Of a stretch of 64,000 nucleotides of DNA, positions 19,945 through 50,032 are shown piece by piece; the stretch's first letter is position 1; the number at the start of each line of letters is the position of its first letter. The notes under the pieces are model-generated. The model was not told the origin of the DNA and ran no database searches. It saw only the letters and a list, made by a program, of their open reading frames with translations. Origin of the DNA: Balamuthia mandrillaris. Lineage: Eukaryota. The translations under genes were made by a program, and so were the position numbers. Location of the stretch: the NCBI GenBank assembly GCA_031835245.2, contig JAVKOQ020000014.1, positions 124,001 through 188,000 on the forward strand. Direction: 5' to 3'.

Positions 19945-20643
19945 CTAGTAAAAGGAACCCAGGAAGAGAAACCTCTTTCCAGCGGATATAGGAAGGCCCA
20001 TGTGCTCATGGGAGACACCGCCAGGATAGACTATGGCAGTGCCAGGGCGGGGCTTGCCGGTGGAGTAGTCCCACTTGGGGAAGTAGGTGCCGCCGCCTTG
20101 GTAGTCGTCCGGCTGGCTGAGGGTGACGACCATGGCCACCGTCTCCATGTCGTGGTGCAGCCCCATCTCCTTGATGACCTCCGGCTCGTACTTGAGGACG
20201 TAGGGGCGGTCCATCTTTTGAATGGTGAAGGTCTTCCAGAGGCTTTGCACGAGAGGGCGGATGTGCTTCTCCACGACCTCGTAGTAGACGGCCTCCAGCT
20301 TGGGGTCGATCTGGTGGAGGTGTTGGGTGGTCTCAGGGTCGTCCACCTCCACGAGGCCCTGCGTGTTGACCTGTTCGAAGGTCTCCTCCTCGGTGACCCA
20401 CTTGCCGCAGTGCTCAGCCTCCTCGATGAGCAGCCGGCAGAACTCCTCGGTGAAGAGCTGGAAGTGGTAGATCTGTTCGACGGGCTCGCGGGTCACTTTG
20501 GTGGGGTCCAGCTTTTGTCCTTCCTTGAGGCTGGCCGTGGCCTCCACCAGCGTTGGGTCTATGAACTTGGGGTCGTACTGGAATAGTTCAGGGTGGAGGG
20601 GCTTGTACCCCCCGCTCTCTTCATTTGTGGTGGAAGAAGACAT
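19945..20643 (-). CDS. Stand-alone 2OG-Fe(II) dioxygenase resembling the PLOD lysyl-hydroxylase catalytic domain (copy A)
   Basis: FQLFTEEFC..LIEEAEHCGKW, YVLKY, HHD, DYQGGGTYF, HEHMGLPISAGKR..SF (HxD...H...R..S). Intronless. Confidence 0.85.
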   Translation of the reverse strand: MSSSTTNEESGGYKPLHPELFQYDPKFIDPTLVEATASLKEGQKLDPTKVTREPVEQIYHFQLFTEEFCRLLIEEAEHCGKWVTEEETFEQVNTQGLVEVDDPETTQHLHQIDPKLEAVYYEVVEKHIRPLVQSLWKTFTIQKMDRPYVLKYEPEVIKEMGLHHDMETVAMVVTLSQPDDYQGGGTYFPKWDYSTGKPRPGTAIVYPGGVSHEHMGLPISAGKRFLFLGSFY

Positions 20644-20851: not shown

Positions 20852-21626
20852 ATGGGGGACCACCACTATAAGCCATTGCACGCAGAGCTATTCAGCTACG
20901 ACGACGCGTTTGTGGAGCGCTTCATAGGGGAGGGCGTTCGCCGCGTGCACCAGCTCACGCCCGAGCAGATCAACGAGCTGCCGTGCATCAAGGAGGTGGC
21001 CGAGCAGATCTACTTCTTCCAGCTGTTCACCGAGGAGTTCTGTCGGCTGCTCGTCGAGGAGGCAGAGCACTGCGGCAAGTGGGTCACCAACAAAGAAAAG
21101 ACCAACGAACCACACCCCTTTGTGGAGGGACTCATCGACGTCTGCGAACCGGACACCGTTATTGAGTTTGATGAACTTCCCGGTTCGTCCCCTTTTCTTC
21201 TTCCTTTCCTCCTCCGTCTCTCCCTTTGACTGAAGGTGAGAAAAAACCAAAACAAACCAACAAAAGGTTTGGAAGAAGTGTATGGCTCCGTGATAAAGAA
21301 CCACGTGCAGCCCATAATGGAGGCCAAGTGGGTGACCTTCAAGCTGCAAAAGTGGGACATGCCGGCGGTTCGCAAGTACGAGCCGGACGTTGTCAACTCC
21401 ATGGACCTGCACTACGACCTGGAGACGCTCTCCATGGTGGGCTACCTCAGCAAGGACTTTGTGGGCGGTGGCACCTACTTTCCTCGGTGGAAGCTGTTGG
21501 TGGGCGGACATGAGGACGTGGTGCCCGGCAGTGTGGTGCTCTACCCTGGTGGCATCAGCCATGAGCACAAAGCGCTCCCCATCACCGCTGGCAAACGCTA
21601 CATGCTCTCTAATTCATTCTTACTGA
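20852..21626 (+). CDS. PLOD-like 2OG-Fe(II) dioxygenase (copy B), one intron at ~21183-21266; 3' end ambiguous (21626 with a 1-nt slip, or 21844)
   Basis: Same motifs as copy A: FQLFTEEFC, HYD, GGGTYF, HEHKALPITAGKR. Confidence 0.8.
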
Positions 21627-22045
21627 AGTTCAACAGCTTCTTCCTGCTAAACCTCTATAAGATGTTATGTTTGTCCAGAGGTGCTCATCGAATTAGAGAG
21701 AGACCTCCATGCGGCCAGGAACATGATCCTTCGTCGCATCCGAGCGGCCGCTCTTTTCATGCGGTAGCGCCGTCTGGCCTTGACCTCGGTCTGGTTCCAC
21801 CGGCCGGCCCTGGAGCTCGTCCAGATGGTAGGCATAGACAATAAAAACGGCCTATGTCGTAGCGACCCCAAACCACCGACCTAGGTAGGCGTTGTTGTTG
21901 TTCGAATGCCTGTCTCATGTCTGCAAATATATAAGTGCTACTTCAATAAGCTGCTGCTGCTGCTGCACCTTCACGTTCAGCAGCAGAAAATGAGGGGGCA
22001 AGCCCCACGCCCACTCAATCCTATTTTCAGAAGATCTTTACTCTC

Positions 22046-30561: not shown

Positions 30562-33500
30562 TGTGATAAGGCCGGTAGGGGAACAACCTAACGGACACCA
30601 ACTTGATGGGCGTAGGGAAAAGACCTTTAATGAAATGAAAGAAAGAGATATATATACAAGGAGAGATAGGGATAGGTATTATGGGAGAGTGGTATAACAC
30701 TTCCCCCTCCCAGGCCAAAGTCATCTGTGATTGACTGTCAGGCCGATAATCATGATACCGCTCTCCAATATGCCTGGACCAGGTCTGGGGCGTTGATAAC
30801 ATTATGTTCAGGCTCCCAAGAGTTGTGGCGGTTGGAGAAACCTTTCCACTTCAACCTATATTCAAGTCCTCGACTGGTGTAGCGGTGATCTAAAACTTTC
30901 TCAACCTCATATTCGTCATCAGCGAGCTCTCTATCTTTGTCGTTACGCGGGATGAATCGTTTGATGCGGTTGAGGTTTACCACTTTATCCATTTCAGGAC
31001 CAGCAGTATTTCGCACCTTGATTGTCTGCGGAGAACAGATTTCAATAATCTTGTAAGGTCCTCCTTTCCAACTACATTGAAGTTTCCTTGACTCGCCTAC
31101 TGATGTGGCTTTGGAGTGAATGAGAACCAGGTTGCCAACCTTAAACTCATCCTCCGGCTTGCCATGCCGTTTCTCCGTCTTCTTCTTTTGAACATTGTCT
31201 ACTCCGTGGGCTTCTTCTGCAAGTTCATGCTGTGTCTCCTGCAGTTGCCTCACCCACGAATCATCGGACAGATGAGTAGTGTCCACCAAACCGGTACCAT
31301 TGGACTTCCTCCCAAACATCAGCTCGTAAGGGGTAAATCATCATCCTGGCAGCAGCGCATGGTGATAAGAATAAAGTAGCATTGGAAGGTACGCACTCCA
31401 GGCTTGTTGCCTGCCATCCACGAATTTGCGGAGCTGCTCCTTAAGGGTGCGGTTGTATTGTTCAACCATGCTGTTTCCTTGGGGATGCTCTGCCATGGCG
31501 TATTTACGCTTGATGCCCAGAAGAGTCGAAAGCTCATTGTTGAGTTTGTTAATGAACTCTCTTCCTTGATCAGACAGAAGCTCCTTCAGGAGGTCTGTGC
31601 TCACGAAGATCTCAAGTAAGGCCTTTGCCACTTCCTTTGCTTGTTTCGTCTTCAATGGACGAATGTCTGGCCAACACATGAAGGCGTCAATGGTGACCAA
31701 GGCGTATCAGTACCCTTCGGCCGTCAAGGGCAACTCACCGATCAGGTCCATGCAGACCAACTTGCTTGGCTCGTTTGCAATGATGTGACCCAATGGCCCA
31801 TCGGCTTTCTTCCATGGAGCCTTCGCCTCCTGGCATTCCACACAGCCCTTGACCCAATGTTCCACATCTTTGTGAATTCCAGGCCACCAGTACTGCATGA
31901 TGAGGCGGGAGTATATCTTTGTAAGGCCGAAATGCCCACACGTAGGAACATTGTGGAACTGACGAAGTATCTCGTTCCTAAGCTCCTTGGGCATGATTTG
32001 TTGGATGGTAGCTTGTTTGACCTTGGCTTTATCAGGCCAAATCGTGTGTAAAAGATGTCCGTCTTGGAGGAAGCACTGCTCCATGAGCCCAGGCTTTGGC
32101 AGAAGGGTTGACAATGCTCACGATAAGGGCTTTGTACCAACATTCCGGCGGCTGGTCGTCCTGCAAATGGAACTCGAGGGCACGGATAAAGGTCAACGGG
32201 TTGGAAATCTTCGGATCGTCCGGGTCAAACTTGGGAAGATCTCGGGGGAAAGATTGGTTCTTTGCAGAAGGGGCCGAAGAAGCAGATGAAGAAGCGGTGT
32301 TGCAAGGCAAAGGCAGAGGCCAACGCTAACGAGGAAGCCGAGAAAGAGGCGGACTTGGGCTTCATGGGTGTTGAAAAGATCAGGTCATCCTCCGCACAAT
32401 CTTTTTGGAATAGAGTCCGTCGCAACGGCGGATTAGATGTCACAGAGGGGGGAACAACAGAAGAAGTAGGGGCGGGAGGGCGGGAAAAAAGAGGGAACTT
32501 CCCGTTCTCCAGGTCATCAATAGCTTTCGAAAGCCAGTCGATCTTGTTACTGAAGAAGACTGCTTTCTTCTGGTGCTCTTCTTCTTCTTCCAGGGTCGAT
32601 GCCATGGCGGCTTTTTCAAGCTCCTCCGCAGCGCAAACATGGGCGTTCTCAAGGGCGGCTCGAAGGCGTTCCAAACGCTCCTCGAAGGCGGTCGGGGAAA
32701 TCGTCTCGGATTTCTTGTTCTTGGCGTCCATCACGTCTGAGGGGAAATCGCACGAATAATGGTTCCGGCCGTCAAAAAAAATGTTAGAAAGGGCGAATAA
32801 CACGAACGGACGGGGCCAAAACGTATTATTCAAGAGGGAACAAAGGAACAAAGAGTGTCAGGAGAGAAAGGTGTGGTGTGAACTAAACAAAACTAACTAA
32901 CTAAAAGAAAGAGAGAAGGAAGCAACGGAATAAAAGGAAGAAGCCTAGCGATGTGGCAACAGGCGATTGGTCCACGTCAAGGATGTCGACAGGAAGAAAA
33001 GGAAAGGAAAGGGGCAACAGAACTAATATGTTGAGAGTAATTCTCAACATCACTCCCTCTTCCGTTAAAGTGAAGCATAGGGGTCATGGTCCAGCGAGTC
33101 TTCTACCAGTTCATTGATAGCACGGCAGTACTCGTAATAGCTGTCAACGTCATCACACTGCAAATAAGAAAGAGTAGCAGAGGGACCAGGAGGGGGGCCA
33201 GATCGGATAGCAGTGGCAGGAGGGCAATCTTGCATCACCTTGACCTTGTTCTGCATGGGACTAATTCCGTCGCTAGACACCATGTGTCCAAGGTACTCCA
33301 TCATCTCCTTTACAAAGGCGCATTTGTTGACCTTCACGTAGAGTCGATACTCACAGAGACGCTCAAAGACCTTGTGTAAGTGAACGAGGTGGTCCTCAAA
33401 TGTCTTGGAAAAAACGATGAGGTCGTTGATGTGACACCAAGAAAACTTCTACTTGAATTCACCAAAGATCTCATCCATTCCTTGTTGGAACATAGCTGGA

Positions 33501-36152
33501 GCATTGGTAGGTCCGAAGGGCATAACCATAGGCTCAAACTGGCCGGATTTTGTAATGAAGGCACACATATTTGCAGTACACTCCTCCATTAGGAAGTGCC
33601 AATAACCACACGCTAGGTCAAACTTGGACCGGAACTTGGAGCCGTGGAGGCAATTCAGTCCGTCCTCAACATTTGGCATAGGATAGAAGTCCTTCACTGT
33701 CATTTGTTTAGCTCTCTGTAATCGATACAGAAACGTGGTTTTCCGTCCTTCTTGATGACAATGATTACTGGGTGTGCCCATTCGCTGACAGATTTGCGAA
33801 TGACGCCCATGAGTAGCATGTCATTCGTGGCAGCGTTGATGGTCTCCTGAACCTTGGCGCTGACCTTGTGAGGCTTCACACGGATGGGGGTATAATCCGT
33901 TAGGACTATCTTGTGGGGAGGAAGTTTAACACTTCCCAGCTCAGGAAGCTTGTAGCAGAAGACGTCCTTGAATTCAAGGGCCAGCTCTAGAAGCCATGCT
34001 TTCTGCCCAATATCCAGGTCCGTGTCGTTCATAAGCTCTCTCAGGCTCGTCATTACCTCTTCCTCGGTGGGAAGCTCCACTGGGTAGATAACGTCCACAA
34101 TGTCTTGGGTCTCCTTTGTGACTGAGGTGCACACTCAGTTGTCATCAGAGTCGCAAGACGAACCTTCCACAGGTTTGCTCTCAGCGAGAAGCAACCAGTG
34201 TCATCGTGCTTCCAAAATGTCCCAGCTGATGAGAAAATCATGAGGCATCGGATCATCCTCTGCCAAGACTGCAACAGTTGCCTTGACGTTCTCATGAGTA
34301 GGCGGAAACAAAGAGTGACGTAACCCTTCGGCTTCACTTCATGGCCAGTGGCACTTCTCCACATATCTCTGTTATGTAGGCTACTCATTCTTACTTCTTC
34401 AGGCAGAAGTGTTTCTCGAACAAAGCTATTGGTGGCACAGGAGTCCAGTGCGGCCTCAATTGTCCTTCCTCCGGAGATCTTCAATGTCATCCTCAGCAGA
34501 CAACGCGTGTTCTTGATGACAATATTCATCGATCCTGTCCTTCCACCAGCACTGTCCTTCTGGGCCAGCGCCTGGCTTTGGCTTCCAGACTTGCCCTTTG
34601 TGTCCCGCAAAGCACCGCCAACAGTGTCCTTCTTCTTGCTTTGGTTGACACGTTTCTTTTCTGAGCACTCTCTTGTCCAGTGCTCTCTCGACTTGCAGTT
34701 GTAGCAAAAGGGTCGCTTTTTCCTCCCGTCATTGCCTGAACTGCTGTCGTTATTGTTCTTCTCCCGCCTTGAGCTCTTTGACTGATGGTCTAAGCTCCTT
34801 TTTGCATGTTTGCGTCCTTCCCAGTCTCTAGCAAGGTTCAGGGCATCAGCCATATTAGCAATGTCTTCCCACTGAAGGAATTTCTCCTTCAGGTCCGGAA
34901 CAGCACCTGTGATGAACTTCTCCAAGACCTGAGTCTTGCTGAAATCCGTGAGAAAAGCCTCTCGCAGCGCTGTACGCACTTGCAAGTTCCAGGCGTCTAC
35001 AGACTCATCAATGTTCATCTGGAGGTTACCAAGCTTCATGATCTTAGCAGTCGCTTGGTCACGATGCTGGAAGCAGTTGAGGAGCTGTGTTTTCACCTCC
35101 ATGGGGGTTAGTAGGACTCCACCTTTTGTTTGTTCTTGCTTGAGGAAGCAGCAAATGACGTCAGCGTTGTCACAAAGTTGTCCTTCAAAGTGAAGGATAT
35201 AGTCCTGATGACTCCAGCCAGCAGCAGTCGCATAGTGGTTGAATGAGGTCAAAAAGATGTTTGGGTCCTTGTTTGGCTTGCCATGGAAAGTTGGCAGCGT
35301 TTCTGTGGTAAGCAGACTCTGCATTGGCTGAATATCACCCAAGCTGTCACCAGTGTTGTGTTTGGTGGTACATCGTCATAAATCTTGACGGCGTGCCGTA
35401 AGGTTGAGTGCAGGTTTTCTCTTCTCCTTCTCCTTTTCTTCCTCCTCTTCGCTTGATGATGAAGAACTGGACCCAGAGCCAAGACCATCATCTTTATCCG
35501 CAAGTTTGGCCTTAAGAAGGTTTTGCAGTTGAGAGATTGCATCATTAAGAGCTGCTAAAGCTACATCATGACTATCATTCACTCGTTTGATGTCGTTCAA
35601 GAGCTCATCTGCAAAGGTTTCCAATTTTGCATCGATATGGTGGATATGGTCAGACAAAGAAGAAGCATCGCTAGTCTGCTTGACCAAGAGCCTGTCGTGG
35701 TCCGCTTGGCTTGCGCGAAGCTCAGAGAGAGCCTGGTCAATGGCATCTAGTCTGTCCGTGGGAAGGGTTGTAGAAGTAGTAGTAGGGGAAGGAGTGCCAG
35801 AAGCTGGAGGGATAGCACCACTGGAAGGTGGACCGCTCTGCGCACCAGAAGAAGGAGTTGTACCAGACTGCGGGGAAGTTCCTGACATTTTACATCACCG
35901 AACACTGCTACGGAAGCGCTCCAAGTTTCCTCCAGAAAACCCTGAGTATCCAAAAATAGGTTAAACACCTGAAAACCGAACTTACCAAGAAAAAAGTAAG
36001 CTGATGTCGCCAAGTGTGATAAGGCCGGTAGGGAAACAACCTAATGGACACCAACTCAATGGGCATAGGGAAAAGACTTTTAATGAAATAAAAGAAAGAG
36101 ATATATATACAAGGAGAGATAGGGATAGGTATTATAGGAGAGTGGTATAACA
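30562..36152 (-). mobile_element. Decayed chromodomain-bearing Ty3/Gypsy LTR retrotransposon (family A)
   Basis: 138-bp LTRs at 36015-36152 and 30562-30699 (8 differences by my count, all transitions). PBS-like TGGCGACATC lies 2 nt inside the 5' LTR and PPT GGAGGGGGAAG precedes the 3' LTR. Gag CYNCKSREHWTREC, protease LDSCA, RT RFCIDYRELN and MPFGPTNAP, integrase HHCC plus SDQGREF..HPQGN, chromodomain YEVEKVLDHR..KWKG..NSWEP. Many stops; RNase H is missing. Confidence 0.95.
32090..33210 (-). mobile_element. Nested family-B fragment: ORF tail + PPT + single LTR (32782-33049) + gag 5' part
   Basis: The LTR matches 25602-25869. It is preceded by GGAAAGAGGGAGTGA and followed by T8 and a gag-like ORF (..DLPKFDPDD..LTFIRALEFHL). 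Confidence 0.8.
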
Positions 36153-38613: not shown

Positions 38614-41367
38614 TCACCAATAATCACCACAAGAGCAATTGCCATCAGGGGAAAACTGATGGAAACGATTGGCATCTCTCACTAAAATCTCTCGCCGTGT
38701 CACCTTGGCAATGAACTTGGTGGCTGTGTGACAGTCCCCACAGACTCTCAAGTTCTTAATAATGCACAATGGCTCGCCTGGTGGAGTAGAAAGCAGTCCA
38801 AATGCAATGGCCAGCTTCTCACTATGAGCGCACAGCTCCACTTCCTTTTGCTCATCAGGCACGTCATGCAGCACCCAGTCTGTGTCTGGTTTATAACCCG
38901 CAGCCTTCATTTGCTGGCTCAGCCTATCCAGCTCCTGATAAATCTCTACGCTGCGTGGGTGGCTGCAGTCCTTCACCACAAAGCTGTGCACTTGCCCATC
39001 CACTGTTATCCAGCTTTTTCCAGGCTCTTTCTTCACCTTGCGTTCCTTCATCTCGTTTCGCACCTTTTCCACATCTGCCCATTGTCCTGCAGCAGCAAAG
39101 ATATTGGACAGCACCACAAAGGGTGCTGCACCTTGTTGCCCCAATTTGATGGCCTGCTCTGCTGCTCGTTCTGCTCGCTTCACGTCTTTTGCTCCTCTGC
39201 ATGCCCCCAGCAACGTCATCCAGGTCACCGAATTAGGTGGCACATCCATGCTATTAATTAGTGCCTCCGCCTCGTCCAACCTTCTTGCCCTTCCCAGTAA
39301 GTCAACTACACATGTGTAATGATCCACCGTTGGCTGGATCCCATGCTTCTCTTTCATGTCAGCAAAGCAAGCCATGCCCTCTTCAATGAGCCCTGCATGG
39401 CTGCATGCATTGAGTACGTTGGTGAAGGTGATCACATCTGGTGCTACACCTTGTTGTCTCATAGCATGAAATGTGGCAAGTGCCTCCTTGCCTTGTCCTG
39501 ACAGGCCATAAGCAGCAATCATTGCATTCCAAGAGATTATATTACGTTCGTTCATCTCCTGGAACACAATGTATGCATCATCCACCTTCCCGCACTTGCC
39601 ATACATGTTGATTAAGGCATTTGACAGAAGAACATCAGGGAGGAAACCACCGCAGAGGAGCTGAGAGTGCACAAACTTGCCCATCTTCCAGTCCGCCGTG
39701 CTAGCACATGCTTTGAGTATACTTCCATAAGTGAAGGAGTCTGGTGGCACACCAGCCTGCTGCATTTGTTGGAACAGCTCAAGAGCTTCCTTCCCATTAC
39801 CATTCTGGACTTCTTCTGTGATCATTGAGTTCCATGCCACCGTATTGTATTCGTTCATCCCTTGGAAGACAGCACGTGCCTCCTCTATCTTCCCACACTT
39901 GCCATACATTCCTATGAGAGAGGATGACAAAAGGGGGTCGGGTAGAAAGTGGTGAGAGAGAAGTTGTGTATGGATGCGCTTGCCCGTCTCCAAATCCTCT
40001 CCAATTGCACATGCTTTGAGAACAGAGGCGTAGGTAAATGAGTTTGGTAGCACGCCTGCCTGTTGCATCTGTTGGTAGAGTTCGAGGGCTTCCCACCAGC
40101 ATCCACACTGTACTTCCTCTGCAATCATTGAGTTCCACATCGCTACATCACGTTTCTTCATCCCCTGGAAAACTGCACGTGCCTCCTCCATCTTCCCACA
40201 CCTGGCATACATGCTTATGAGGGAGGTTGATAGAACAACATCAGGAAAGAAGCCACCATGAAGAAGCTGGGTATGAATACGCTTGCCCGCCTCCAAGTCC
40301 TCTGCAATTGTGCATGCTTTAAGGACAATAGCATAGGTGAAGGAGTCCGGTGGCACGCCAGCCTGTTGCATCCTTTGAAATAGCTCAAGGGCCTCTTTCC
40401 CATGTTCGTGCTGGGTTTCCTCCCCAATCATTGCATTCCACGTCACTACATTGCGTTCCTTCATCCCTTGGAACACTGCACGTGCATCATTCATCTTTCC
40501 ACACTTTCCATACAGGCTTATGAGGGCAGTTGATAGGACAACGTCTGGTAGGAAGCCGTGATCGAGGAGCTGAGCATGGACGCGCTTGCCCATCTCCAAG
40601 TCCTCTACATTTGCGCATGCTTTGAGGGCAATAGCATAGGTGAAGGCGTCTGGTGGCACACCTGCTTGTGGCATCCGTTGAAACAGCTCAAGGACCTCCT
40701 TGTGGTGTCCGCACTGTGAGTAGGCTTGCATCAAGGCGTTCCATGTCCACACATTGCGCTCCTCAGTTTGCTCAAACACTGCAAGGGCCAAGTCTATCCT
40801 ACCGCACAGGCCATAGGTGCTGATGAGAGAAGTGGAGAGGTGGGGAGAAAGCGGGCGAGAAGAGAGGGAGAGGAGGTGGGAATGCACACGCTGACTCTCC
40901 TTCAACGTTCTTTCCCTCTTGCACCGCTTCAACAGCTCCATGTAGACTCTCTCTTTTGCTCTCACTCCAACCTTTTCCATCTCCCCCAACGTGGCGGCCA
41001 GTGCCCGTCCCTGAAGTCGGCCCTCTCCTCGTGCCAGGGCTTGCAGCTGCCGGGTGTAGTCTCTCTTCGTCTTGCTTCCCCCCGTGTTCATGCCAGCTGC
41101 TCTGCCCTGTCTGTGCGGCTCGTCCGCCCTCTTCCAGTTGCTCACTGTACGCTCCCCTGTGACGATGATGAACGAAAACGGTTGAAGAAAACGTCCCAAA
41201 AAAAAAACAACCGTGAAAGAGAGCGCACCGCTACAGGAGAAAGAGGAGGAGGGGTGGTAGGTGCACGTGGAGGGAAGGCAAAAGGAAGTGCACAACGGCG
41301 AGTGCAACCCACGCGGCAGCTGCAAAACCTTCTCCATTGCTCCGGGCACACTTCTGCGGGGCCACAT
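38614..41367 (-). CDS. PLS-class PPR protein with E1, E2 and complete DYW cytidine-deaminase domain (C-to-U RNA editing factor type); probable in-frame intron 41157-41228
   Basis: 17 L/S/P motifs ending P2-L2-S2, E motifs, PG box (PGKSWI), HSEKLAIAFG, KNLRVCGDCH and C-terminal CSCGDYW. The N-terminus is Ser/Arg-rich and presequence-like. Confidence 0.95.
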   Translation of the reverse strand: MWPRRSVPGAMEKVLQLPRGLHSPLCTSFCLPSTCTYHPSSSFSCSGALSFTVVFFLGRFLQPFSFIIVTGERTVSNWKRADEPHRQGRAAGMNTGGSKTKRDYTRQLQALARGEGRLQGRALAATLGEMEKVGVRAKERVYMELLKRCKRERTLKESQRVHSHLLSLSSRPLSPHLSTSLISTYGLCGRIDLALAVFEQTEERNVWTWNALMQAYSQCGHHKEVLELFQRMPQAGVPPDAFTYAIALKACANVEDLEMGKRVHAQLLDHGFLPDVVLSTALISLYGKCGKMNDARAVFQGMKERNVVTWNAMIGEETQHEHGKEALELFQRMQQAGVPPDSFTYAIVLKACTIAEDLEAGKRIHTQLLHGGFFPDVVLSTSLISMYARCGKMEEARAVFQGMKKRDVAMWNSMIAEEVQCGCWWEALELYQQMQQAGVLPNSFTYASVLKACAIGEDLETGKRIHTQLLSHHFLPDPLLSSSLIGMYGKCGKIEEARAVFQGMNEYNTVAWNSMITEEVQNGNGKEALELFQQMQQAGVPPDSFTYGSILKACASTADWKMGKFVHSQLLCGGFLPDVLLSNALINMYGKCGKVDDAYIVFQEMNERNIISWNAMIAAYGLSGQGKEALATFHAMRQQGVAPDVITFTNVLNACSHAGLIEEGMACFADMKEKHGIQPTVDHYTCVVDLLGRARRLDEAEALINSMDVPPNSVTWMTLLGACRGAKDVKRAERAAEQAIKLGQQGAAPFVVLSNIFAAAGQWADVEKVRNEMKERKVKKEPGKSWITVDGQVHSFVVKDCSHPRSVEIYQELDRLSQQMKAAGYKPDTDWVLHDVPDEQKEVELCAHSEKLAIAFGLLSTPPGEPLCIIKNLRVCGDCHTATKFIAKVTRREILVRDANRFHQFSPDGNCSCGDYW

Positions 41368-41695
41368 TTGCGTTCCTTCTCCTTCTCTCTTTTTACGTCG
41401 ACCACAGAAAATAAATTAAAATAAATAAATGGCCACCAAAAAAAATAAAATAAAATTTAATGGGATGGAGGACGGATGGATGGGGATGGATGGAGGGATG
41501 GGGGGATGGAGGGATGGAGGGATGGAGGGATGGAGGGATGGAGGGATGGAGGGATGGAGGGATGGAGGGATGCCGTGCTGCTTGCTATGCCTGACTTTCT
41601 TTATTATTGTTTTTTCTATTCTAAACATTGGTATAAACAACGCATAAACAAAAAGGAAACCCAACCATTCTTTCTTTTTGTACAGTTTTAAGAAC

Positions 41696-42514
41696 TTAGA
41701 ACTTGGGGGCTGTGGTAGCCCAAGTATCAGCGTCATGAAAAAAGTTCCATTCTCCATCATAAGAACCAATTACTGCAGGAACAGGTTGTTGGATGGCCTC
41801 TAAACGCCAGAAGGAAGACTTGTACCAAGCCGCAGTTGGTTTGAGGCCTAGATTGGCCCAAAAAGGGAGCCGGTCCTCCCAGCCTGGGTCCTCATACTCG
41901 GTGAAATTACGCACTATATCGGTCATGCTGAAGCCCATCCCTGACACAAGCTTCTGCACTCCAAACCACTTTTGTTTATTGCATTCCAATGTTGTCAATC
42001 CAAAGTAGATTACACTTCCTGCAATTGGTTGACGCCAAAACAAACGAAGCGAGTCAGTTAGCGCGACAATAAAAATAACTGCACAAAAAAATAAGAAAGG
42101 AAAGTAAATACCGGGTCCTTTCAAAGAGGCCACACCGCGAGAAAGAAAGACTTTACAGCCTTCCACAGTTTCAACAGGATCGCTGGCAAACACATCGAAA
42201 CTCCTCTGGAATGACTGAGGAAGGGCAAATCTAGCATCATAGAGATGAGCCTCCAACCGAAGATTGTAACGCTTTGCTGCAGCGTTGAGGAAATCAATGA
42301 GACGTTGGTCAGCTTCCACGCATACTACCCTCTCGGGCAGTCCTGTAAGAGCACATGCCAAGGACAGAAGGTCATCGTCCCCTAATATAAATATTCTTTT
42401 GCCAAGCAGGTCGCCCCGTGCATGCATAAAACCTACTCTGTGTAATGCGTGTTGTGGGCTCATATACCACTATATCATGGTTGTTAGACCCTTTCGCTCT
42501 TATGGCCAGACTTT

Positions 42515-42556
<42 letters not shown>

Positions 42557-42565
42557 GGAGGGAGG

Positions 42566-42607
<42 letters not shown>

Positions 42608-43340
42608 ACCTGGTCAAACTCTTCTTTCGCACTCGGGCGAGTAGCAGCAATTTCATTGAATAGGTGAAGTAAATTGAAGTTGGAGGGACAGTGGTAACCC
42701 CTGGTTTCGCACTGGCAACAGGGTTGCGTCGATGACATTCCCACTATATCGTTTGTTGCCGCTGTATCAGTGTTAAAGTAACGTTGCAGCGCCTTATCCG
42801 CCTTCTCTGTAAGTTTTAGCTGTTGTTGTCACAAAACATGAGAACCACGTCTTCTTCACAAAAAATAAGAGAGAGCAGAGAGCAGAGAGCAGAGAGCAGA
42901 GAGCAGAGAGCAGAGAGCAGAGAGGGAGAACGCACTACGCCTTCTTCAAGGACAGCCCAGCCCTCCTGTTGCAGGCGTTGAAGCTGATCATAAAAGTCAC
43001 GCAAGGAAGCGTCCTGCAAGTTAAGCAAGGCGCAAGGGTCCATTTTCCCTTCCTTAGCCTTTGTTTTCAGTGTATATAGCAGCCTCAGCAAGTCTGCCGC
43101 TGGCACAGTTGCTCCCTCCTCTTGCCTCGGTGGGTGGAAGTCACTTGGTGGTTCTTGCTCTGCTGCTTCCTTCATTTTTTGAGGGAGTGCCTCAAATGAA
43201 CACCCACCAGCAGCAGCAGTCATTTGCTGGTGGCCAGCAGCTGACAACCGGCAGCAGGAGGGCTCTCCTCTAGGCGCTACCAAAGCTGTGGCCGGGCTAG
43301 TATCCGTTCTCGTCGCAGTGCAACTATCAGCCAGCAACAT
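41696..43340 (-). CDS. bpsA: BpsA-like branched-chain polyamine synthase (N4-bis(aminopropyl)spermidine synthase, DUF43), paralogue 1; exons 43340-42936, 42819-42610, 42469-42112, 42018-41696 (431 aa)
   Basis: CCQCETRG, RPSAKEEFDQ, MHARGDLLGKRIFILGDDDLLS, LTGLPERV, FDVFASDPVET, FLSRGVASLKGPG, YFGLT, KW..VQK, TDIVRNFTEY and WYKS are collinear with archaeal BpsA. The spliced frame is open. Confidence 0.9.
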
Positions 43341-43796
43341 TTTTTCGCTTGTGTCTTTCTTCGTCTTCTTCTTCTTCTTCTTCGGGCAGTGAAGAAAAAG
43401 GGTTTAGCAGGCAAACAACAATCAGAAAACCAGAAAATAAAATTGGGAGTTGTGGTGGGTGGGCCGCCTTCAGGAAAGAAGAAGGGGGAGCGGAACGTAC
43501 GCTCTCCTTTTTTTGACCGGATATCCTTTTAAAGTATATATCTTAGATTATGATCGATCTATATTACATTAGCATACCTAATATACGCATGGCAGATGAA
43601 TTGCGGGCAGCTCATTGGTTGCCATGATGCCGCAAGTTACACTTGTCCGCAAAAAATCGCAAATGAGGGGGAAAGGAAGAAGGGCGTTGGCAAGCGGTGG
43701 TGCTCTTCCCTAACAACAAAGCTTCTTCTGTTTCTTCTTCTTCTCCTTCTTCTTCGATTGTTGTTCAAAAGCGAACACGAACAGCAGCAACAAGGA

Positions 43797-45060
43797 ATGA
43801 AAAGCCTGGATTGGAAGACAAGCTTGTCAGAGGAGGTACGCTCCCGCCATATGAGGCTAGTGGCTGAGGCGGCCTCCCGCAGAGGGCTGAAGGAAGAGCA
43901 GTTTCATGTGGCACCCATTGTCAGCTGGGACAACACCATCTACGTGGTGCGGACGGAAAAGCACAAGGGAGGGGTCATGGTCGCGCGGTTCCCCACGCGG
44001 CCTCCTTCCGCTCGTCCTCCGCAACATAGCCCTGCAACGCAAGCCGCCATTGCACGGGTCTTACAACGACATGGTACCCCTCCTTCCCCTCGTATTTTTG
44101 TTTCTTTGCTGATCAACGGTGGATGCAACAGGAGTGGTAGGGCCAACTCCTCTTGAGGTAAACCTGGAAGAAGACTTTTTATTGGAGACTTATGTTGAAG
44201 GGAGCAACTTTGGTGATGTATTCGAGGAGCTGGCAGCTACAACAACGAACGGCTCAGAGAGCAAAGAAGAGCGGGAAGCGTACCAAAAAGAGCAACGAGA
44301 AGCGGTGTTTGTGCAGCTAGGAGGAGTGCTACGGCGGTTACACAGCATAAAGACGGAGGGCTATGGGCTGGTGAGCTACGACGAGTCCGCCTACAACCAG
44401 CTGAGGGGAATCTCTTCCTGTTGGCTCGACTTTTGCGAGCAGCACTTCATGGGAGGGTTGAGGGCACTGGAGGAGGCCGCCGCTCTTCCCCCCGACCTTC
44501 TGAAAGAGCTCTCTCGGCTCTACCACCGCTATCAGCCCTATCTGGCCGCCTTTGACAAGCCTTGCCTTGTTCATGCCGATCTCAATGATGACAACATTCG
44601 GGTGATTCTACAACCGTCATCACAACAGCAGCCACAACTACCACAACAACTGCCAGCAGAAGCAAAAGCACCCCAACAACAACAACAACAACAACAACGG
44701 AACAAACAGGAAATTCCCAAGAATGGAGGAGGAACAGAGCTAAAGATAAGCGGTCTCTTGGACTTTTGCGATTCCCTCTCGGGAGACCCTCTCTACGACT
44801 TTGGGTCTTTGCTGGAGGATGAAGGTCCCTCCGTGATGGGCTGGGTGGAGCAAGGCTACGGCGAATGGAGCCAGCAACAAAAGGAACTAATCTTCTTCTA
44901 CGCTATCTTCATAACAGTCTACTACATGACGGAGGGAGGCGTTCGTTACAAACGCCTGCCCAAGTACACCCAAAAGTTGCGCCTCTTTTTGTCGCGTTTG
45001 CTGCGCAACGACGTGGACCTCTGCTCTGCTTCTGGTGTTGACCACCTGTCTGCTTCGTGA
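43797..45060 (+). CDS. APH/choline-kinase-fold phosphotransferase; intron 44074-44131 (401 aa)
   Basis: VARFP, LLETYVEG, LGGVLRRLHSI..GYG, LVHADLNDDNI (Brenner motif) and GLLDFCDSLSGDPLYDF. Confidence 0.88.
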
Positions 45061-45253
45061 CCTTATGATTATTGATAAAGCCTTTTATTTATTTTTTATT
45101 GTCTTCTTCTTTCACGTAATATAAATGTGTGTTTTCTTCTTCAGGAGAGCAAGTATACCCACTCGTGTGGTATATTGAAAGAAAACAGAAGAAGCTGCTG
45201 CACCAAAAGAAAAGGGGAGAAGTAGTGAGTGAGGGAGGCGAGGGCGAAAGAAA

Positions 45254-46649
45254 ATGGAAAATACCAAACAAGTCACTGAGACTGGAGGAGAGGCACTGGC
45301 GCTGCACCTCCTGACCAAGTTGCGAGAAAAGGGAGAGCTCTCGCCGTGGAAGCTGCTCTGCCTCCAGGACAAGACCCTTCAAGAGTTTTACGAAGCCGTG
45401 GAAAGCCTTAAACAGCGAGGTCTTATCGAGCTCACTCCCGAAGCCAAAGTACGTCAACCTTTTTTGAGGGTTTTATGCCATTTTGTGGTGTGTGGTGTGT
45501 TGAGGAGGGAGGCATGGGTGTGTGGTGTTGCGTGTCTTTTCGTTATGCGCCGAGAAGCGAGGTTGCCGCTCACCACAAAGCTGCAACCCACCTACCTCCG
45601 CCGCCACTCCCACAAAAAAAAAAATAATAATATTCTGCACAGCGGCTGAGGTTGACCAAGGAAGGAAAGGACCATTTGGCGCAAGTGGCGGGAGAGAACC
45701 CATCGCTCTTTGACTTCAAGTGCGGCAAGTGTGAGGGCAAAGGCTACACTGTGGCCTCCGATGAAGCCTTCCTTGCCAGGTACAAGAAGCTGTTGGAGAC
45801 ACGCCCTCTCCCTACCGAGCAGTATGACCAGGTTGGTAGAACTTAAGGACCACGCGAACACAAGAAAAACCCTGGCTTTTCATATTGGTGTCCTACAAAA
45901 GACTGACCAACCAACCAAACAAACGACCAAACCAACAGACGTCGATAACAGCAGAGGACGCGGTGATAAGGGTAGGCTTTTTCCATGAACGAGGAGACCT
46001 GCTGAACAAGGACTTGTTGATGATAGGCGACTTTGACTGCCTGTCGATAGTGGCGGCATTGACAGGACTGCCAAGGAGGGTGTTGGTGTTGGATGTGGAC
46101 GACCGACTCATCGCCTACATTAACCAAGTGGCGGAGGAGACGGGCACCTCCCACATCTTAAAGGCTGAAAAGTTCGATGTAAGGCAGCCATTGCCGGAGA
46201 GCTACAGAGGCTCTTTTGACGTGTTCTCTAGTGACCCGGTGGAGACTCTGGAAGGAATCAAGCTCTACCTGTCTCGTGGAGTGAGCGGGCTGCGTAACTC
46301 CCTCAGCAGCTGTGCCTACATTGGGCTGACCACACTGGAAGCCTCTCGCAAGAAGTGGTATGACATCCAGAAGCTGCTCTTTGACATGAACCTGGTGGTT
46401 ACCGACATTCGCCGCAACTTCAACGAGTATCCTGATACCGGCCTGGAGGAGATGCACATCATATACGAGAAGTTGGGCTGTGTGCCCGATTGCGTGTGGT
46501 ACTGGGCTGCCCTTTTGAGGGTGGAGTGCGTTGGCGTGCCTTCTCCTCTCATCACTGGCGCCTACGACGATCAGCAAGGACCTGACATCTACCTTGATGA
46601 CGAAGCCTGGGCCACCCCTATCCTTCCTTCCTCCTCCTCTTCTTCCTAA
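45254..46649 (+). CDS. bpsA: BpsA-like paralogue 2 with GDFD in place of GDDD; exons 45254-45448, 45643-45831, 45939-46649 (364 aa)
   Basis: CGKCEGKG, RPLPTEQYDQ, HERGDLLNKDLLMIGDFD, LTGLPRRVLVLDVDDRL, FDVRQPLP, FDVFSSDPVET, YIGLTTLEASRKKWYDIQK and VVTDIRRNFNEY. Confidence 0.9.
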
Positions 46650-46672
46650 TAGGTTTCGCGGTGAGGCACTAA

Positions 46673-50032
<3,360 letters not shown>

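Follow-up and report, generated by a model that had tools for sequence, protein, structure and literature searches.

What do two copies of bpsA do in Balamuthia mandrillaris, an amoeba that is not a thermophile? According to a 2026 review available in part (PMC12979288), only thermophiles have bpsA orthologs, and higher organisms have no known pathway to branched polyamines. The two copies, A and B, lie in a 64,000-nucleotide stretch of contig JAVKOQ020000014.1 (positions 124,001 to 188,000; hereafter the window) and bracket a kinase gene, K; two genes for lysyl-hydroxylase-like dioxygenases, LH1 and LH2, are found in the same window (Table 1). Judged from sequence and gene neighbourhoods, A, B and the LH pair probably descend from a bacterial polyamine-tailoring operon and would build a branched or extended, hydroxylated polyamine. 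The best reading of their history is that this operon was acquired horizontally and kept as a cluster.

Family membership and transcription of the two copies

Both copies belong to the BpsA family. They match PF01861 (BpsA_C, cut-off 27 bits) with E 9e-60 and 202 bits for A, and E 2e-63 and 214 bits for B, they match the T. kodakarensis BpsA (Tk-BpsA) structure 5XNC by sequence (E 2e-55 and 8e-55 for the two copies), and the best solved relatives of each are BpsA structures. The predicted structure of B (pLDDT 78) superposes on 5XNC with a TM-score of 0.79, and in a search with this model all nine BpsA-family chains outrank every other methyltransferase; Foldseek with the A model, which is weak (pLDDT 58), also gives 5XNC first. 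All eight BpsA motifs are present in order in A and B, which share 39% identity, and the acidic C-terminal tail is retained in both. The acceptor-site residues matching D225, E259, Y290 and Y316 of Tk-BpsA (numbering counted on alignments, with a 20-residue offset) are invariant in 9/9 A-type and 15/15 B-type sequences. An NCBI protein from Balamuthia (P0209) has the same sequence as copy B, and copy A is close to other models of that species; the automatic NCBI name of both proteins, N(4)-bis(aminopropyl)spermidine synthase, means that the label is already in databases. The model shows the N-terminal extension of A (window 43340-43100, minus strand) as disordered; extensions are also present in several A-type orthologs.

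The introns of A, K and B are all GT..AG and their frames hold no internal stops. Contigs of run X1, for which an RNA origin is assumed, cover the region 42930-47200 with three spliced contigs, one each for A, K and B, and the joint at intron 1 of A is seen in a transcript-like contig in which exon 1 runs into exon 2. Raw RNA runs are sparse (35, 37 and 6 matching reads) and inform on the presence of splicing, not on expression level or life-cycle stage; the K intron is spliced in one of the three, and B intron 2 in all three. A, K and B are transcribed. The sequence-only reading of this locus, which saw two intact spliced BpsA/DUF43 genes with the full motif order and took their introns as an argument against contamination, is borne out by the profile match, the gene structures and the splicing in public runs.

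Since splicing is seen in reads, bacterial contamination is excluded. The wider alternative that the genes are contaminants, relics or chance neighbours without a shared pathway is very improbable, and for the bpsA pair largely refuted: besides the confirmed spliceosomal introns, orthologs occur across Discosea and Tubulinea, and the same four genes are linked in another eukaryote. What chance would explain well is the placement of the kinase alone, and the distance of the LH pair would fit it too.

Copy B and position 159

The GDDD motif (Tk 157-160) stands at residues 235-238 of A and is kept in 9/9 A-type sequences. It is indispensable in Tk-BpsA, where Asp159 and Asp160 bind the aminopropyl moiety of decarboxylated S-adenosylmethionine (dcSAM), as stated in the available part of PMC12979288. 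In B the motif reads GDFD: residue 159 is Phe in 15/15 B-type sequences and Asp in 39/39 chosen prokaryotic reference sequences. Because B carries Phe at a dcSAM-binding Asp, and this Phe is invariant in its clade, A and B are by sequence not equivalent. The GDxD motif that the sequence-only reading had noted in both copies is present, but it conceals this difference, and the notion of two plain BpsA copies fails on B, which is without the residue reported as essential.

B is also without an aromatic residue at position 129. An aromatic at 129 is absent from all 38 rows whose residue 159 is Phe or Tyr and present in 237 of the 286 rows with Asp159 (329 rows left by dereplication at 90% from 394 that had both columns, out of 428 proteins); as the rows come from few clades, this is a pattern and not a statistic. 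The co-occurrence of Phe/Tyr159 with loss of the aromatic at 129 suggests that the pocket of B is remodelled rather than decayed.

Four activities may be considered for B. Aminopropyl transfer to another acceptor is the leading candidate, albeit at slightly less than an even chance; an active aminopropyltransferase of altered specificity is favoured by a fusion of S-adenosylmethionine decarboxylase (AdoMetDC) to BpsA(GDFD) and by bacterial GDFD proteins having no GDDD partner (see below). The fusion argument is somewhat weakened, as the true substrate of some AdoMetDC homologs is ornithine or arginine (PMC10407285, available in part; bpsA is unmentioned in that part). S-adenosylmethionine (SAM)-dependent N-methylation is a more tentative candidate, favoured by the precedent of plant putrescine N-methyltransferase: in plants, an Asp-to-Ile exchange turned spermidine synthase into a methyltransferase, and D103I alone ended aminopropyl transfer and gave weak methyl transfer (PMC3725402, available in part). 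Positions 129-130 are Thr/Ser in amoebal B and Gly/Ala in bacterial GDFD proteins, a comparison of sequence without ligand geometry. That B is an inactive partner appears unlikely, and aminocarboxypropyl transfer less likely still.

Trypanosomatid prozyme is the precedent for a catalytically dead activating partner, and B might likewise activate or scaffold A as a heteromer. The loss of the essential Asp would fit, as would the adjacency of A and B in two lineages and the presence of both in Luapelamoeba. We nevertheless regard such a heteromer as improbable: none of the four acceptor-site residues is lost in B, its acidic tail is kept and it is the better conserved of the two copies, bacterial GDFD enzymes occur without a GDDD partner in the genome, and Amoeba proteus yielded the B type alone.

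Conserved partners and the place of the kinase

The gene company of bpsA elsewhere points beyond the bpsA-kinase-bpsA triplet. On metagenome contig L020 the order is LH1, B, A, LH2 within 5.5 kb, with B and A in tandem and both intron-bearing; the related contig L023 runs on into a eukaryotic mRNA cap methyltransferase gene. L020 and L022-L024 are 85-99% alike and were counted as one lineage (the 52 stretches of the metagenome scan resolved into 14 loci). B, A, LH1 and LH2 are a conserved eukaryotic linkage, kept in one other lineage. Toward L020, B is more conserved than A (70% vs 57%). No kinase match was found between or beside B and A on L020; about 1.2 kb between A and LH2 (L020 3600-4800) holds fragmentary frames with no Pfam match, and a gene there is possible.

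The same partners recur in bacteria. The species-genome scan gave 80 matched stretches, 10 of which were relatives; three of these 10 have GDFD, from Holophagales, Myxococcales and Rhodanobacteraceae bins. Spermidine-synthase-like genes and one or two OGFOD2-like dioxygenases stand in 3/3 of these GDFD neighbourhoods, an AdoMetDC fused to a dioxygenase in 2/3, an APH kinase in 2/3, and an amine oxidase, GNAT or MFS-like gene in some. As a control, the three GDFD genomes have five LH matches in all, each no more than about 2 kb from bpsA, and among 401 Myxococcota genomes LH is found, at E 1e-10, only in the GDFD genome, though 25 have a BpsA_C match. (The other 24, L026-L050, carry shorter, more distant GDDD-type PF01861 proteins, also in non-thermophiles.) In the three bacterial genomes GDFD is the sole BpsA and must therefore work there without a GDDD partner. 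A search of representative proteins added fusions of the types AdoMetDC-BpsA(GDFD) (P0417), BpsA(GDFD)-APH and BpsA(GDDG)-APH.

These neighbourhoods bear on a plain thermophile-type pathway, in which both copies would make N4-aminopropylspermidine and N4-bis(aminopropyl)spermidine with dioxygenases and kinase as bystanders. A has every defining residue tested, NCBI names both proteins accordingly, and the fusion P0417 joins a GDFD protein to AdoMetDC. Such a pathway is unlikely all the same, given Phe159 in 15/15 B-clade members and LH genes that accompany bacterial GDFD bpsA and flank the pair in L020.

LH1 and LH2 stand head to head at 19.9-21.8 kb. LH1 matches the lysyl hydroxylase domain of PLOD3 with E 9e-22; both proteins have the HxD...H metal ligands and the 2-oxoglutarate (2OG)-binding Arg and are homologous to the PLOD domain. 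The amoebal LH1 and LH2 each cluster with a different bacterial operon copy (99/99; tree of 9 rows). Viral contigs yielded zero relatives of B or LH1, and annotated phages only weak LH matches below 32% identity. In this assembly the LH2 frame extends about 70 codons beyond the end of all homologs (window 21600-21844, plus strand), an allele or an assembly error.

Diatom silaffins set a precedent for polyamine-like decoration of macromolecules, and APH-fold kinases include hydroxylysine and choline kinases. Aminopropyl or methyl groups, hydroxyls and phosphate might thus be placed on protein lysines or on a surface glycan or lipid, the more so as the best solved LH relatives are peptidyl-lysine hydroxylases. 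A macromolecular acceptor is nonetheless a poor prospect: the genes around bacterial bpsA are those of small-polyamine metabolism (spermidine-synthase-like, amine oxidase, GNAT, MFS-like transporter), and the spermidine-pocket residues of BpsA are retained.

The kinase is a looser member. K matches PF01636 above the cut-off and shares the HxDxxxxN and D-F motifs of this APH/choline-kinase-like family, and the APH-fold kinase described earlier between the two copies agrees with this match and with the coordinates (gaps of 456 bp between A and K and 193 bp between K and B). Its single match outside Balamuthia is a dictyostelid protein (E 2e-4), with which it groups. Four bpsA-linked bacterial APH kinases form one clade (96/94) with K outside; on a profile of these kinases K scores 31 bits, below three unrelated APH proteins (44-63), and the three GDFD bacterial genomes gave no credible K match. 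A joint clade of K and the bpsA-linked bacterial kinases is not rejected (p-AU 0.18). K may be a replacement recruited into the cluster, at somewhat less than even odds, or else a chance insert. The accession numbers of A, K and B are consecutive on further contigs, and this serial numbering suggests that the A-K-B order is likely the same there. Of the linked cluster proposed in the sequence-only reading, the A-B linkage thus stands in L020, but the kinase is not between the copies there and is apparently not orthologous to the bpsA-linked bacterial kinases, and the conserved partners, two 2OG dioxygenases 20 kb away, were left outside its bounds.

Table 1. Features of the window; positions count from its first nucleotide.
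Feature	Position	Strand	Description
LH1	19945..20643	-	intronless lysyl-hydroxylase-like 2OG-Fe(II) dioxygenase, 232 aa, HxD...H triad intact
LH2	20852..21844	+	second such dioxygenase; one intron 21183-21266
Retrotransposon	30753..35894	-	decayed chromodomain long terminal repeat element: reverse transcriptase, integrase, chromo, zinc knuckle; between LH and bpsA pairs; outside pathway
PPR-E-E+-DYW open frame	38614..41415	-	DYW deaminase domain; directly beside A, between LH pair and A; outside pathway
bpsA copy A	41696..43340	-	GDDD type, 431 aa, ~80-aa N-terminal extension; exons 43340-42936, 42819-42610, 42469-42112, 42018-41696
Kinase K	43797..45060	+	APH-fold small-molecule kinase, 401 aa; exons 43797-44073, 44132-45060
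bpsA copy B	45254..46649	+	GDFD type, 364 aa; exons 45254-45448, 45643-45831, 45939-46649

As regards other neighbours, DYW deaminase domains are of the organellar C-to-U editing type, found in plants and few protists. A nearby aldehyde dehydrogenase was considered as a pathway member and dropped, as it resembles methylmalonate-semialdehyde dehydrogenase rather than an aminoaldehyde enzyme. The gene convergent with B is of the MCM family by Pfam, whereas the subunit label MCM6 comes from the sequence-only reading alone; the two stop codons are 23 bp apart (window 46649-46673), so that the 3' ends must overlap.

Ancestry, proposed pathway and comparison with known systems

Eukaryotic bpsA is not confined to Balamuthia. 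The A type was found in Luapelamoeba and Dracoamoeba and the B type in Luapelamoeba, which has both, and in Amoeba proteus; the named carriers cover Discosea and Tubulinea. Further eukaryote types are GDDD in Stenamoeba and GDAD in EukProt entries. Many further matches are intronless contigs of about 1.1 kb that resemble transcripts. Besides A and B, two more eukaryote-type groups were noted (P0028, P0047, P0257, P0275; and P0258, P0262, P0263, P0270, P0282), and since one of them is GDAD, position 159 was altered at least twice. A 1081-aa protein joins an N-terminal hydrophobic segment to two BpsA domains, and a related single-domain form exists (P0266, P0396).

Three intron positions are common to A-type and B-type genes, at the same site and in the same phase. 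These shared sites point to an A/B duplication after intron gain, within eukaryotes. The trees strongly support A, B, a third eukaryote-type group and a bacterial GDFD group, each by itself, and place them inside the prokaryotic BpsA diversity, in keeping with the prokaryotic origin proposed earlier.

On the reading preferred here, an operon with bpsA and both dioxygenases would have entered Amoebozoa, where bpsA then duplicated. A, with its full active site, would use dcSAM as aminopropyl donor and spermidine or thermospermine as acceptor, via the acidic C-terminal relay, and B, with Asp159 replaced by Phe and the aromatic at 129 lost, would carry out a further alkyl transfer of another kind. 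LH1 and LH2 would place hydroxyls on carbons close to amine groups, in the way that collagen lysyl hydroxylase modifies lysine, and K might phosphorylate the new hydroxyl, a step we hold at a little under an even chance. The thermospermine synthase of Balamuthia has been validated (PMC12803844, available in part). A bolder version is possible but doubtful: the first eukaryotic branched-polyamine pathway, obtained from bacteria as an operon, in which A branches, a neofunctionalised B methylates or adds further alkyl groups, the LH pair hydroxylates and an independently recruited K phosphorylates, giving a new polycation or zwitterion class shared with scattered non-thermophilic bacteria.

Several observations weigh against the operon-derived pathway. 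B has no Asp159, a residue described as indispensable for Tk-BpsA (PMC12979288, in its available part), and this speaks against B as an aminopropyltransferase. Within the window, neither an AdoMetDC gene nor one for spermidine synthase was found. The LH pair lies 20 kb from copy A, with the retrotransposon and the PPR-DYW gene intervening, and eukaryotic synteny is known from one outside lineage only. The trees leave the mutual order of A, B, the other two eukaryote-type clades and bacterial GDFD unsettled, so that donor and direction of transfer are not fixed; in approximately unbiased (AU) tests, neither B with bacterial GDFD (p 0.32) nor a single eukaryotic clade (p 0.49) is rejected.

Transcribed, duplicated and diverged homologs in two amoebozoan phyla contradict the thermophile-only range of the BpsA family. 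Operon-like clusters retained in protists are rare. The GDFD subfamily with its dioxygenase partners is an uncharacterised pathway, whose product, if as proposed, is not yet reported in eukaryotes; a literature search in which subscription journals were thinly covered and supplements were outside scope found no eukaryotic BpsA, GDFD subfamily or dioxygenase-linked operon. The BpsA family has no known member in humans, which makes it a possible target for drugs against this hard-to-treat amoeba.

Among known systems, the LH domain of PLOD3/LH3 and the mimivirus-type lysyl hydroxylase (6FXK, 6AX6) have the HxD...H triad and the 2OG-binding Arg in common with LH1. Unlike PLOD3/LH3, LH1 and LH2 each consist of one free-standing domain, and they share 42-59% identity with the dioxygenases of bacterial polyamine operons. 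Putrescine N-methyltransferase (PMC3725402, in its available part) resembles B in that the aminopropyl-binding Asp of a dcSAM site gave way to a hydrophobic residue, but it belongs to another enzyme family, the hydroxyl residues for the SAM carboxylate are not clear in bacterial GDFD proteins, and one GDFD protein is fused to AdoMetDC. Thermophile BpsA and the amoebal copies are alike in sequence, fold, CxxC N-terminal domain, acceptor D/E/Y/Y and acidic C-terminal tail, and A shares the GDDD motif. The Balamuthia genes differ in being eukaryotic, intron-bearing and duplicated, with B as a GDFD protein without the aromatic at 129, and in their linkage to dioxygenases and a kinase, partners that go unmentioned for known BpsA in the available part of PMC12979288.

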